Shown here one piece after another: positions 9,001 to 15,000 of a stretch of DNA of 40,547 nt. The position numbers are program-made. The stretch is from a virus (Duplodnaviria > Heunggongvirae > Uroviricota > Caudoviricetes): the IMG/VR virus record IMGVR_UViG_2617270967_000014; one strand, 5' to 3'. Position 1 is the stretch's first letter, and every line of letters begins with the position of its first letter.

Positions 9001-12000
9001 CTTCGGTACTTTCCGGTCCTTAAATACATTATTCCACGGAAATAATGAACAGACTGCCTGCAATGTTTTCCCTTCTGGTTTATTCGTATACGTTTTTGAT
9101 CCCGACTCCGCCGTAAACCTGTCCAGGAAAAATATGGGAGTAAGCACGCCCGTAACATTAACATTATTTCTGTTGTATATTGCAAAACCATATTCTGCCA
9201 ATGTCAGCCTCCGGCTCAGCTTAACCTGCCTATGCGAACAGCCAGGCGTCCGTTCTGGTCATAAACTTCAATTTTATCATTGCGGATCACCAGCCCCACA
9301 TTCTGATTAGAGTAACGAATTGTCAGTTGCCCTTGTGACGTAACACTGAAAAGGCCTCCAATATTCAGGTTACCCTGAGAATCAACCTGAAAGTTTCCGT
9401 TTTGAATAACGGCACTCCGAATAACTGGCGAAGTGATACTTCCCCCGGCTTTTCCCTCATCCGCCACAACCTTCCGCGACACCAGTGTTTCAATCACCGC
9501 GTCATAAATCATCGCTTTCGGGATCACTACCTTGCCACCTGATACCGCAAACGGATAGGCTGTGTTATCCGGATTATTCGGGTCAAAGACAAACAACTGC
9601 GACGCAGAAATTGCAACCTGACTTACAGGCCTGCCTTCACTGTCTTTTCCGGCGACAATCCCGATCCCCGCAGTGATGCCATCAACTCCCGCTTTTTTTG
9701 ACCACATCGCAAGGAAGGCCTCACCGCCTTCTTTATCCAGTTTAGTGATGCGCTTGTCGACCTCATTAAGCGATTCACTGGTTGACGAATCCAGTGTGGT
9801 TATGCGGGTTTCAATACCACCAATCGTTCTTGTCGTTTCCTCCCTGAGAGCCCCCACAACTTCGGTTGTCTTAATTGCCGCATCCTTTACAGCCTGCCCC
9901 TGCGCGTTTTTTATTTCTTTACGCAGCTCGGACACAACCGGCGACTTTGCAGCCTCATCGCGGATCTGGTCAATGATGGCCTTCACGCCGATCTGTGTTT
10001 GTGCCTGAGTGCCTTTTTCAGCATTCCATGGACCTTTCACTCCTGCCGCGTTAACAAAACGTATCCAGTAAAATCCCGACCAGCCAGGGTCAACCGGATC
10101 GCCGTAAACCTGCCCCGGCGTCGTGGCAACCAGCACTGCATCAGCAAGGTCATCCTCCGTACCCCGCCAGATTTCAGTCAGTGAATGTCCGCGATAATTA
10201 GGCATATCCCATTCAAGAAGAACCGAGCCAAATCCACCTGTCGCCTTAAAATTCAGCGGTTTTGTGGGAAAATCAACAGTCATTAAAGTACTGTCAATCT
10301 CAATACCCGGATTCAGTGCATATGAGGCACCACCCTGTGTACGACGTCGGGCAAGTTTAAGGCCAACCAGCTCTTCACGGGTCACAAAAGCATGACGACC
10401 GTCGCCACGCTGCCCGGTGCCAATTTCCATATTTTCCACAACAGCGGATAAATCCTTCCCCGCCCGCCACGGTTTTTTGCTCATATCGGTAACTCCGACA
10501 TCGATGTACTCAGGGTTATTCGTTCCACCTGCCCAAATCCGGATACCATCACCTGCCAGTTTTGCCCGGTTGCTGCCGGAAGTCTCACCACACTTCCCTT
10601 AAACGTACCCGGCGCAAAATGAATAACAGGAACATCATCAGCCATAACGGTGATCCCCACCCGCTCAGGTGCTGGAGATTTCACCCTGATACAGGAAAAA
10701 GAGGTTCTTTCAGGCAATGAAAAAATTTTTGAATGCCACCTTATCGTGGACGGCAGAGAGCCCCCGGCAAGCACTGACATTTTGTCTCCTGTCACCACGC
10801 GCATCATATCTTTTGCGAGATCAACCCATGCGCAGTCAAACGGTGTACTGAGATAGCGGATATCCACGGTGTCTGACGGCGTGGGTGTTACGCTGAGAAA
10901 AAGCATTTGAAGGTGGCAAAAGTCTGGAACCACGAGTCCGTTTCGTTTCTGCCAAATTTGCGCATTTTTCATCACAACCATCATCGCCTGAAGGCTCGTC
11001 ATGACTGGAGTTGCCGTCAGATTTCTGCGCACTTTTTTGATCATCAATTTGCGCATTTTTCTGCGCACTTTTCTCTGTATTTCTGGGGGAGTGTTTGCGC
11101 AGTTTAATGTACCGCCGAGCCGTGTCATAACTGATATTGTTCTGACGGCACCAATCCTGAAGCTTTATGCCGGTTTTGACATGTTCGCGTCGAAATGCCT
11201 GCTCCAGCTTTTTCCAGTCCAGCTTTGCCATGTCACCTTCTGACGTTCTCTGTTAAAAACTGATGCACAATGACTGCTGTAAATTTTCAGATTTCACACA
11301 GCAGAGCCATGTCTGATTAATGTTTAACCTTATTTAGGTTATATCCGCTTCATTCCACTACAGCACCAGATAGGCTGCCTCGCGGATAAATGCCAAAGTC
11401 TCCTGATATAGAAACCCGTCGCCACATCGAGCGCTGATCAACATTTGTATATTCACTGCGACAGAAAGAATTTATTTTATTGAATAGTTAGAAATACAGA
11501 ATTGCATGCTTTATAAGCATTGACGCACACTTCATTTTTAGCAATATATTCTGTTCTCATAGACGATCAGCCCTGCATGCACTGCCGGACACCGTCGGCA
11601 ATTTTACAGACCTAAGAGGCAATACCAAAAAGCTAACGCGCTTTATCAAGACTTGAGCAACCAACCAATAAAAAAAGCACCAGTACCGCTACCAATGCCC
11701 ATTTCGTCGTTGTTCACAGCATTCTGTGTACCCACTGTATTTCGCGTCATATCACCACGTCAGACAATCCTTAAGGATTACATAAGATTTACGCATAATA
11801 ATGCCCATTTTCAACACAGACAAGGGAATTTATATGTTAAATCAAACGCTAACAAAATCTCTTCTTATATTTTTACTTGTCATAATCGTTTCTGTATCCA
11901 TCATATACATTGTAAGAACTCCAGTCAGACTTGATGTGAACGATGTCACTGAGATTAACCAGAAACATCCCATTATTTTTCTCATCCGGCATGGGGAAAG

Positions 12001-15000
12001 ATGCGATCGCTCCCAAAGAATATGTCTTTCAGCACATGAGGGAATCACAGTAAACGGAGCTAACAAAGCTCAACAATATGGAGATAAATTCAGAAGAATG
12101 TTTCCATACTACAGTCTCTATTCTACAGACACACTCCGAACAATGCAGACAGCCACTTTTTTTTCGGGAGGTAAGACAGCAACTATTCCGGACATATCGA
12201 CATGTGATGATAACGCAGTAAATAATATCCTTAAAATATCAAAATCAGATCATGTTACTGTGATTTTCACACATAATCACTGTCTGTCCAGAATTGCAAA
12301 AAAAATGAATGGATGGAGATTTAAACCTGATTATATGGGCACACTGGTTCTGCATCGGGAAAATCACAATCTGATTCTCGACGGACATTTAAAACCAAAC
12401 GAGCTTACCCAGTGATCCATTTGTTGATAATGCACTGGCATTGATTCAGGTTATATCTCTCCTCATAAAAAAGGCCAGCGATTGAGCTGGCTCTGTTAAT
12501 CGAGGCATTGCATCCTGATGTACTCCTGCAGGTAGTTAACCTGCGCGGTTATCTTGTCGATTCCACTTCGGAGACGGTAATAATTGAGTTCAGCATCTGC
12601 TGTAAGTCCTGAGCTTTCTCCATCGCCCATGCCGCTGGCTCCGGTCGTTGACTTTGCACAGGTGGCGGCGACTTGCAGGCGCTTACGCCCAGCAGAAACA
12701 TCAGCACGGAGACTTTCAATAGTCGCGTTAGCATCAGCAAGCTCCCTGGTGTATCTGGCATCGAGTGCAGCAACATCACGCTGGCGCTGCTGTATGTCAG
12801 CAATGGTGGCGTTCGCCTGGCTGAGTTTTGTCTTCGCATCATCTCGCTGCTCTTTGTAGGTGATGGCGTTATCACGGTAATGGTCTGTTGCCAGCCACAG
12901 CGATCCACAACCAAGCAGCAGGACAATAAGCACGCCATACAGCACACGATTCATATCACCACCAACGGATTGCCCAGACCAGAACAGCAATTGCCACAAT
13001 ACGAATGGCAAAAGCTGCCGCTCTTGTTAAATCCAGACTTGCTGGCGTCTCCACCTCAATGCCTTTCATAATGGACAACCTCAGAAAGAATCTTTTATAC
13101 TTCCTCACAGGGAAAGAACCTCCCTACCCATAATTTCTCCCTTGCCTTATTCAAGGTCAGAAACACAAAACCCCGCTTGCTGCCAACAAACGGGGTTTTT
13201 ACTTTTACTCACTTAAATTTTGCCAGTTCGCAGGATTTCGTGTTATCCGTTCGCGTTGGTCAACGGCATTTTTCAGCAGAATATTCTGCTTATCTGTCGA
13301 TACTCCAGCACGCCAGCGCGCTCTCCTGGTCACGCCGCGATACCTGCCCGTAACAGTTATTTGAGCGGTTCCGACAGTCCCTGCCGCCGTCATATATCCA
13401 TCGGCGGATTTCAGCACATGCACCTTTCCGGTCTCCTGCGTTCAGTTTCCGGTAAAACGTTGAGGTGAAGCATTTCGAAGGCCCGATGTTGTACGGACAG
13501 AATGACGCGATGCCCGCTTTCTGCGGTTCGGTCAGTGGCACTCTGATGTTTTTCTCCACCCATGCCAGCGCCTTATCACGCTCAATGGCGTTAACCCGGT
13601 CGCATTTTTCCTTCGACAACTTCATGCCCGGAACGACAGGTTTGCCATCCACCAGGATGGCACCGCGGCAGATAGTCCAGATACCCGCACCATCACGGTA
13701 TGCCGTGGTGTGGTTACCTTCTTTTTCGTCAAGAAACTGGTCGAGGATTTCAGGCGCAGAAGCGCCCGCAGCAATCAGCGCCAGAACGACCGCTGATAAA
13801 CCATAGCGGAATTTCCTGCTCATCAGCTTACTCTCCCCGCGCCGCCTTACGCCGGTCCTCTTTGATTTTGAAATACAGGTTAGTCAGGTACGTCAGCAGC
13901 CCAAACAGCAGACTCCCCAGCACGCCTATTGCCGCCCACTGAGACGGGGAAACCCTGTCCAGCAACTGCAGGAACCAGTAGCCCGTTCCCACCGCTGACG
14001 TGGTGTATGACACACCTGTTGTGATTTTTTCCATCTGGTACATACCCCGTCTCCCGCAATCCGGAAGCTCACAACAATATAAAGACCACCGGCACACACC
14101 GATGGTCCCTTGCGCATGCTTACATCATCATGTCGCTGTCAGGTGTAGGTTCACCGCCATCTGAAGCACTCCCGTCACCCGCGATACCTTCCGGCTCAGG
14201 AACCGCTGGTACGCCCAGCAGCTCATCCAGAATGGCATCCACTTCTGCATCAAGACGCGACTCAAGGTTCTGGCGGAGTTTCTGTTTCAGTGCGCTCCGG
14301 ACTTCTTCAGAGCGCAGGACTTCCTTCACTGCCTCAGCAGTGACCAGGGATGTGATTTCTGACATGGGATTTTCTCGCTGAAAGGGGTTGTTAAGGAGTA
14401 ACGGGTTCTTCGGGCTTGCTTCCGGCTGACTGACTGGCGCTGATTTTCTCAGCGGCCCTTTTATCAATCTGCCTGCACCAGAAATCGCGCACAGCCCTGT
14501 ACCCACCCGAAAGAAGATACAGCACACAGACCGCCGTACAGAAGTACAGCATCACCTGATGAATAAATGTCATAATTTCTTACCGTTATGGTTGACAATG
14601 AGAATTGTTTTCATTTAAAAACCAATGTACGAAAGCATCTTTTCTTTACATTCTCCATTGGGATTACCTCCGCCAGCTTCCATTCCTGCCGCTGGCGGCT
14701 TTTTTTAGCAATTATGCGGCTGCTCCAGCTTTGTTTGCTTTAACTTCCACCGTATCAATAAGTACAGGGTAGGTTTCTGCACTACCTGTAATATCCGTAA
14801 TGACAAACCTGTTGAGTCCATTAGCAGTATTGGCCCATTTCACCAGGTCAAACGCCTGTCCATCCACACCATCAAGCACCGGAGTAACATTAATGCTGTT
14901 ACTGCCCTTAAATTTAAATGCAAGCGTATGCCAGTCATGGTCGAATGCGCCAAACGTGCCAAGTTCTTTTTGTTGATTAACTGTATGATGGTATGCAACA

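Follow-up and report, generated by a model that had tools for sequence, protein, structure and literature searches.

An Ais/PmrG-family histidine phosphatase gene in the bor slot of an Escherichia coli prophage, with a conserved predicted PmrA-box promoter

The locus described here raised the question of what an intact enzyme gene does among the late genes of a prophage, on the strand opposite to them, and under which conditions it would be expressed. The prophage lies in a 40,547-nucleotide (nt) stretch of DNA (IMG/VR record IMGVR_UViG_2617270967_000014; Caudoviricetes), called the window throughout, and the gene, at 11834..12415 on the + strand, encodes a histidine phosphatase of the family of Ais (E. 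coli) and PmrG (Salmonella). The original prediction for this DNA had proposed an Ais/PmrG-like lipopolysaccharide (LPS) phosphatase encoded at the position where lambda has bor, and had considered it a candidate for lysogenic conversion. Our analysis suggested that the gene is a compact moron that would be switched on by the PmrAB two-component system in lysogens, and that its product is likely an LPS-core heptose phosphatase. We consider this model as a whole fairly probable, and we place higher confidence in the more limited statement that the product is a periplasmic envelope phosphatase. The gene thus remained a plausible candidate for lysogenic conversion.

The open reading frame (ORF) was intact and located between Rz and a terminase remnant on the strand opposite the late operon, as had been predicted. 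It runs from the ATG at 11834 to the TGA at 12413-12415 and encodes 193 amino acids (aa) plus the stop. An in-frame ATG further upstream, at 11801, would yield a protein of 204 aa (11 extra residues). The start at 11834 was favoured, as it is the one used by RefSeq, the equivalent codon begins all diverged alleles, and a Shine-Dalgarno sequence, AAGGGA (11822..11827, + strand), is situated 7 nt upstream of it; in addition, the predicted -10 element described below would put the transcription start downstream of ATG 11801. The description of the gene as AT-rich was borne out by its atypical composition, with a GC content of 37.5% (32% at third codon positions) versus 47.9% for the window and 53-55% for the flanking Rz, lysozyme, and holin genes.

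The family assignment itself is already known, as PGAP names the gene in RefSeq. The protein matched the Pfam family His_Phos_1 (PF00300) at E=1.1e-6 and passed the NCBIfam subfamily model NF011945, “LPS core heptose(II)-phosphate phosphatase,” with 202 bits against a cut-off of 142. A pairwise alignment with K-12 Ais gave 43% identity over 158 aa (E=7e-44). The “strong similarity to Ais/PmrG” of the original prediction therefore needs to be divided: homology is clear, but the similarity is only moderate, and the protein falls short of the threshold of the PmrG equivalog model. Judged from its sequence, it is a paralogue, not an orthologue, of PmrG and Ais. The members of the prophage clade to which it belongs are 60-85% identical to one another and group separately, with a distinct N-terminus in which a long anchor is followed by a conserved “RTP.” Distant members of the family (26-35% identity; loci L058-L112) were widespread in Pseudomonas chromosomes, and the family is not confined to Enterobacteriaceae.

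The motifs RH[GA]ERCDRS, TxRTxQ[ST]A, and FTHNHC, together with conserved cysteines, are shared with Ais (b2252) and PmrG, as members of the NF011945 subfamily. In the window protein, RHGERCDRS (residues 52-60, 11987..12013, + strand) contains the catalytic RHGE (residues 52-55, 11987-11998), with the nucleophilic His after the catalytic Arg, and the phosphate pocket, whereas FTHNHC (residues 145-150, 12266..12283, + strand) contains the second catalytic His and a conserved Cys. We took H147 rather than H149 as the probable catalytic residue in the latter motif. In family alignments of 20 and 33 members, R52, H53, E55, R56, C57, D58, R59, S60, C64, H147, H149, and C150 were invariant and R102 was nearly so; C124 was nearly invariant in the 20-sequence alignment, and position 54 was either Gly or Ala in the 33-member alignment. 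The histidine phosphatase with an RHGE motif that had been read from the sequence was thus confirmed, with the catalytic Arg and His invariant in 33 relatives. The alignment proposed as a check at that time, in which a loss of catalytic residues would have spoken against the prediction, showed RHGE, Arg102, and His147 all to be kept.

Structural comparison agreed with this assignment. A PDB sequence search with the single protein gave no match, no solved Ais structure was found in the PDB searches, and a search with the family profile gave only weak matches, to fructose-2,6-bisphosphatase (FBPase-2), Sts-1, and dPGM. In that profile search, RHGE aligned to the RHGES nucleophile motif of FBPase-2, and R102, within TLRTMQTA, aligned to its RTIQTA arginine motif. 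The AlphaFold2 model (pLDDT 90.9) consisted of a 26-residue N-terminal helix (residues 2-27) followed by an alpha/beta domain, for which Foldseek returned 192 PDB matches at E<=1e-3. The best 50 of these 192 were all histidine phosphatases, and the matches listed among them included the histidine phosphatase domain of MutT1, PhoE, and SixA, with TM-scores of 0.5-0.65. An N-terminal RHG, a second Arg and a C-terminal His, and the phosphoglycerate-mutase-like fold of the model are the features of a branch-1 histidine phosphatase. A regulatory, AfrS-like role as the primary function of the protein was considered and rejected, because the predicted fold is that of an exported enzyme and the active site is intact. 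The name AfrS entered through a frameshifted 150-aa relative in E. coli UMNF18 (P0066), 60% identical over the N-terminal half, which is called “transcriptional activator AfrS” in GenBank. Going by this label, the AfrS protein of the AF/R1 pilus operon may also belong to the Ais family.

Membrane anchoring, another element of the original prediction, was supported by a hydrophobic segment at residues 9-27 (11858..11914, + strand) that coincided with the predicted N-terminal helix and could serve as a signal anchor or a signal peptide. The mean Kyte-Doolittle hydropathy of this segment was 3.06, versus 2.02 for the K-12 Ais signal peptide; in contrast to the latter, it is longer and has no AxA-like cleavage site. 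Lys and Arg were enriched ahead of the segment in all alleles, which fits the positive-inside rule. We infer an N-in/C-out signal anchor with a periplasmic catalytic domain, although a cleaved signal peptide is also possible, and the conserved cysteines would fit a domain located in the periplasm.

The AT-rich region upstream of the gene had been taken as a hint that the gene has its own expression, and this hint was much strengthened by a conserved, predicted PmrA-box promoter directly upstream. The predicted PmrA (BasR) box, CTTAAG-gatta-CATAAG, is located at 11770..11786 (+ strand) and would span about -36 to -20. A -10-like hexamer, CATAAT (11794..11799, + strand), follows 7 nt 3' of the box and implies a transcription start near 11806. 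The PmrA box consensus is CTTAAG-N5-xTTAAT, with two hexamers 5 bp apart, and the validated box of pbgP is CTTAAT-N5-CCTAAG (PMC3973317). At pbgP, the box overlaps or replaces the -35 element, at about -37 to -21 (PMC10570014). A generic sigma-70 scan found no convincing promoter upstream of the phosphatase gene; it missed CATAAT because there is no -35 hexamer, as is expected for a PmrA-dependent promoter. The pattern CTTAAG-N7-TAAK matched once in the 40.5-kb window on both strands, versus 0.08 matches expected. Two other regulators were compared with the repeat by eye and rejected: an RcsAB box fitted at 7 of 14 positions, and a PhoP box did not fit.

Both this single match and the conservation of the box speak against chance. 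Scoring used the 12 half-site positions and took the best site over the 160 nt upstream of each allele. A best box of 10-12 of 12, lying 64-71 nt before the ATG, was obtained in the window group and in the allele groups L008/L024/L025, L009, L010/L026, L006 (an IncF-plasmid copy), and L011/L029-L033, with a perfect CTTAAG-N5-CTTAAG in L010/L026. The background frequency of a score of at least 10 was 1.7e-4 per position, and the same scoring recovered the PmrA box upstream of arnB in K-12. Equivalents of the -10-like hexamer (AATAAT, TATAAT, and ATAAAT) were situated 7-10 nt past the box in other alleles. The box was kept in five sequence-unrelated upstream contexts, the flanks of these groups being unalignable, and was found in every prophage or viral-contig allele with readable upstream DNA except for one Salmonella allele and one distant, 43% identical plasmid paralogue; one IMG/VR contig that ends at the gene start fell outside the comparison. 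Such conservation constitutes a phylogenetic footprint that predicts PmrA control. Chromosomal ais/pmrG orthologues have only a shared, arnB-oriented box about 170-230 nt upstream, whereas the box of the prophage clade is dedicated, close, and in direct orientation. This difference suggested that the clade stays in the PmrA regulon through a compact promoter of its own.

The placement of the gene at the bor position was confirmed by direct comparison with sibling phages. The Rz-to-terS interval was searched against 50,697 phage records, 432 of which share parts of the flanks. The order Rz, Bor, terminase was found in the sibling Shiga toxin (Stx) phages AU5Stx1, SH2026Stx1, PA2, and WGPS9; in the Stx1 phage AU5Stx1, whose flanking DNA shares about 80% identity with the window, bor is placed between rz and terS and runs opposite to both, occupying the same slot in the same orientation as the phosphatase gene. 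No Bor family was present among the Pfam matches, and what the gene shares with bor is genomic position only. Among the 432 flank-sharing records, the phosphatase gene was present only in the Stx1-converting phage GER2, where it is 99.5% identical and occupies the same place. The GER2 record (L003, MG710528, 8001-8582) annotates just a 273-nt fragment and a spurious antisense ORF there; the full 193-aa ORF was intact by tblastn (99.5%).

The gene was also present in 22 IMG/VR viral contigs. Its carriers are Stx-type (Sepvirinae) prophages as well as lambdoid prophages of other types. Diverged alleles, with 60-76% protein identity and 67-82% nucleotide identity to the window gene, directly followed the last gene of the lysis cassette, in antisense orientation to it, and preceded the terminase genes (L008-L011). 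The lysis cassettes adjoining the alleles were of four kinds: a class II holin with an RrrD lysozyme and a spanin; a holin pair with a GH108 enzyme (twice); a holin pair with an M15 peptidase; and, in the window, a P21-type holin with a lysozyme and Rz. The pairwise ratio of nonsynonymous to synonymous substitution rates (dN/dS) among alleles was 0.16-0.30 at dS 0.65-1.3, and therefore the protein is under purifying selection. Insertion between conserved phage modules, absence from close relatives, and a deviant base composition are all properties of a moron, and all were found here.

As delimited by alignment and its predicted signals, the moron unit is about 0.7 kb long, at roughly 11750-12470, and comprises the box, the -10 hexamer, the Shine-Dalgarno sequence, the coding sequence, and a shared hairpin. 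Its approximate left edge (“ccacgtcagac..”, 11750..11769, + strand) is where homology among the alleles of the window, L008, L024, and L025 starts; in the DNA alignment with L008, an allele of 76% identity, homology does not extend more than about 20 nt upstream of the box. Further upstream, the window matched a phage-backbone segment that encodes a 60-aa lipoprotein in other prophages and is truncated in the window. The truncated small lipoprotein ORF (11633-11695, - strand, within 11400-11758) reads MVAVLVLFLLVGCSSLDKAR up to its stop codon, includes an LVGC lipobox, and is followed by a terminator-like hairpin on the - strand (11700-11675); the homologous ORF is intact, at 60 aa, in E. coli SE11 (L005 5169-5351). 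At the right edge, a GC-rich hairpin, GCCAGC-N6-GCTGGC (12474..12491), separates the convergent phosphatase and Rz genes; only on the - strand does it have a proper T-run, and there it forms a canonical intrinsic terminator after Rz. Neither Rfam nor ARAGORN detected an RNA gene within the cassette or beside it. In the intact phage, the Q-antiterminated late transcript must read antisense through the phosphatase gene to reach terS, so expression of the gene would belong to the lysogenic state. The bor gene of lambda is likewise expressed in the lysogenic state.

In the proposed mechanism, the PmrB/PmrA (BasS/BasR) system of the lysogenic host, sensing Fe3+, Al3+, or mild acid, would phosphorylate PmrA, which would then bind 11770-11786 in place of a -35 element and recruit sigma-70 RNA polymerase to CATAAT. 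The phosphatase gene would be transcribed antisense to the phage late operon, and its 193-aa product would insert into the inner membrane by its N-terminal segment, with the catalytic domain in the periplasm and the four conserved cysteines probably forming two disulfides. Catalysis would follow branch-1 histidine phosphatase chemistry, His53 being the nucleophile. Homology with Salmonella PmrG points to the heptose II phosphate of the LPS inner core as the most likely substrate. Loss of this phosphate would lower the negative charge of the envelope, and may thereby provide tolerance of Fe3+ and Al3+ and alter the core as a ligand for phages, colicins, and pili. Tolerance of Fe3+ and Al3+ is the known phenotype of PmrG. 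Dephosphorylation of heptose II of the LPS core by Salmonella PmrG is described in a passage of PMC8129183 that cites Nishino 2006. Deletion of pmrG in PmrA-constitutive E. coli left polymyxin B resistance unchanged (PMC8129183); the earlier idea that the prophage gene could alter cationic-peptide resistance is therefore weak, and an effect on polymyxin sensitivity is unlikely.

Several observations weigh against this model. The second half-site, CATAAG, deviates from xTTAAT at position 2, although CCTAAG of the validated pbgP box deviates at the same position, and since CTTAAG is palindromic, the orientation of the box rests on the position of the -10 hexamer. In the Salmonella allele, an element of the IS3 insertion sequence (IS) family is inserted 67 nt upstream and the box is lost, so PmrA control is not obligatory. 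The + strand terminator for the phosphatase gene is weak. The protein failed the PmrG equivalog model NF052369, with 113.4 bits against a cut-off of 170, and an identical substrate to that of PmrG is thus not assured. Lastly, E. coli already has a chromosomal ais, and the added benefit of a second copy is not evident.

One alternative retains the enzyme but assigns its selection to the mobile element: editing of the LPS core would remove or mask a receptor, excluding core-dependent phages or attachment of the IncI thin pilus (PilV), and the benefit would lie in exclusion instead of stress tolerance of the host. PilV adhesins of IncI plasmids bind the LPS core of the recipient, and the family recurs on three kinds of mobile element: prophages, IncI1 plasmids (the TraG protein), and IncF virulence plasmids, where it sits in IS-flanked islands. 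Of 1,440 matching plasmid records, IncI1 TraG among them, 1,383 were typed as conjugative. Stx-type short-tailed phages, however, use BamA and not the LPS core, making self-exclusion unlikely, and a PmrA-conditional promoter would be odd for constitutive exclusion. No PHROGs family covers the phosphatase, and PADLOC returned no defence-family match for it. TraG of pESBL-EA11 (O3K_25647) was dispensable for plasmid transfer, with a probability of being required of 0.00 (PMC4288162), and a gene that the donor does not need for transfer would fit an accessory, surface-directed role. Taking both sides together, we consider selection for receptor editing rather unlikely.

A different substrate was the second alternative weighed, and we regard it as somewhat more doubtful. 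The protein would then be a periplasmic histidine phosphatase that adds a new activity rather than duplicating Ais, with heptose I phosphate or pyrophosphoethanolamine, the lipid A 1-diphosphate, Kdo-linked groups, undecaprenyl pyrophosphate, or a periplasmic phosphoprotein as candidate substrates. It would otherwise be difficult to see why a redundant copy of an enzyme of the core genome is carried, and the identity of only 43% to Ais, the score below the PmrG equivalog cut-off, and the clade-specific N-terminus of this separate group all point in the same direction. On the other hand, every residue kept without exception in Ais, PmrG, and the prophage clade lines the predicted active-site motifs, and a conserved, predicted place in the PmrA regulon suggests that the enzyme acts in the same physiological pathway. 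An LPS-core heptose phosphatase under PmrAB control remained our preferred reading.

The history of the prophage bears on whether the gene has any current function. The window is E. coli DNA, and the 1.1 kb around the phosphatase gene matched, at 100% identity, a prophage that is present in the O104:H4 outbreak lineage and in a small number of other strains; the allele occurred at >=99% identity in 43 of 5,426 complete E. coli genomes. The protein is 100% identical to RefSeq WP_000934362.1 in E. coli O104:H4. In O104:H4 strain 2011C-3493 (locus L001), the counterpart prophage is complete, with terminases, portal, an N4-gp56-type capsid protein, and tail genes, in an Stx-phage-like (Sepvirinae) layout without stx. 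Relative to this intact prophage, BLAST alignment revealed a deletion of 13.2 kb in the window (L001 6279-19461), which removed the 3' part of terS along with terL and the portal, capsid, tail-fibre, and cor genes. At the junction (10861-10866), codon 123 of terS is fused to the 3' end of a tail gene, an arrangement found in none of the 5,426 complete E. coli genomes searched. The window prophage is therefore defective; nevertheless, the phosphatase gene was untouched. That the gene is hitch-hiking or decaying cargo, as the loss of packaging and structural genes and the truncation of the adjacent small lipoprotein ORF might suggest, was already disfavoured and is highly improbable, given an intact ORF that does not differ from its allele in the intact O104:H4 prophage (100% identity), dN/dS of 0.16-0.30 across alleles, and a promoter box kept while its flanks diverged beyond alignment.

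The genes on either side of the moron belong to the late operon. On its left lies the small terminase remnant, the N-terminal 123 codons of terS (10861..11231, - strand), identified by BLAST against the intact O104:H4 prophage. On its right lies the lysis cassette, the last gene of which is the Rz spanin gene with embedded Rz1 (12496..12954, - strand; Pfam PF03245, E=1.1e-36), convergent with the phosphatase gene and annotated as “lysis protein” in the O104:H4 counterpart. The cassette also includes a phage lysozyme gene (13290-13823, - strand) and a P21-type holin gene, likewise on the - strand.

Other features of the window were noted beyond this region. A chromosomal molybdopterin oxidoreductase gene, DmsA/YnfE-like, occupies 1-2397 (+ strand), so the left boundary of the prophage probably falls between about 2400 and the antirepressor genes, the first of which begins at 2801. 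The Q antiterminator gene and a nanS-p-like SASA esterase gene flank a full-length Rfam match to the small RNA STnc100 (16844-17049, - strand, 165 bits). The Q-to-nanS-p interval houses stx in Stx phages, and in the window it contains neither stx nor a tRNA gene. Two tandem modules of C4 antisense RNA, isrK, and c4-a1b1 target, as in P1/P7-type antirepressor control, were found at 20191-20389 and 21776-21974 (- strand), with one flank duplicated relative to the O104:H4 prophage by BLAST. A hok/sok type I toxin-antitoxin locus is located at 23838-24012 (- strand), with an Rfam sok match of 110 bits; the O104:H4 counterpart carries an annotated hokD.

Comparison with known systems places the gene between several of them. 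With Ais and PmrG, it would share export and association with a PmrA box, both of them predictions for the prophage gene; in contrast to the chromosomal genes, it lies between Rz and terS and is neither next to nor divergent from arnBCADTEF (arnB being pmrH). With bor of lambda and the Bor-like genes of Stx phages, which encode a serum-resistance lipoprotein, it shares an identical slot, antisense orientation, and the concept of a lysogen-expressed envelope moron. However, Bor is a small outer-membrane lipoprotein without sequence or fold relation to the prophage protein, which is an enzyme with predicted PmrA-dependent regulation. Prophage genes for LPS modification, such as gtrABC (glucosylation) and Oac (O-acetylation), remodel the LPS of the lysogen by adding groups to the O antigen, usually for superinfection exclusion. 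The prophage phosphatase is similar in being prophage-borne and LPS-directed, but is predicted to remove an inner-core phosphate under a host two-component system. TraG of IncI1 plasmids (R64/pESBL), annotated as a histidine phosphatase or “LPS core heptose(II)-phosphate phosphatase,” is also mobile-element-borne and of the same family, with 45.6% identity over 75% of the query (PMC4288162); unlike the prophage gene, it is embedded in a tra operon, and it belongs to a different clade. E. coli O104:H4 would carry three paralogues, namely the prophage copy, the plasmid TraG (PMC4288162), and presumably chromosomal ais.

Literature searches on prophage Ais/PmrG, the locus tags, and AfrS turned up no study of this gene, and no paper in the library searched deals with a phage-borne Ais or with these accessions. 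To the known family assignment, our analysis added direct confirmation of the exchange with bor, the use of one slot across unrelated lysis modules, purifying selection, and a conserved predicted PmrA-box promoter. An LPS-modifying moron as such would not startle a specialist, but the predicted PmrAB wiring, together with the presence of the family on three kinds of mobile element, would justify a simple experiment. More broadly, and only tentatively, the Ais-family phosphatases of mobile elements (the prophage clade, IncI1 TraG, and those of IS-flanked plasmid islands) may form a class of host-signal-gated “LPS-core editors,” of which the prophage version would belong to the PmrAB regulon by way of its dedicated PmrA-box promoter. 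In the iron-rich, acidic gut, a lysogen would then strip phosphate from its core, gaining tolerance of metals or host defences and presenting a changed receptor to competing phages or conjugative pili, and the gene would be a fitness determinant of O104:H4-type strains. We consider this wider proposal unlikely as it stands.

If the enzyme merely duplicates chromosomal Ais, the gene would be ordinary cargo. If the proposed model is true, it would provide a clean example of a moron with a site for a host two-component regulator, so that the prophage adds to envelope remodelling only in response to Fe3+, Al3+, or acid sensed by the host. It would also add inner-core modification to the phage-encoded changes of LPS, which are dominated by modification of the O antigen. 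In addition, it would offer an easy experimental handle on the question why pathogenic E. coli, the O104:H4 strain of the 2011 outbreak among them, repeatedly carry Ais-type enzymes on prophages, on IncI1 plasmids, and on virulence plasmids.

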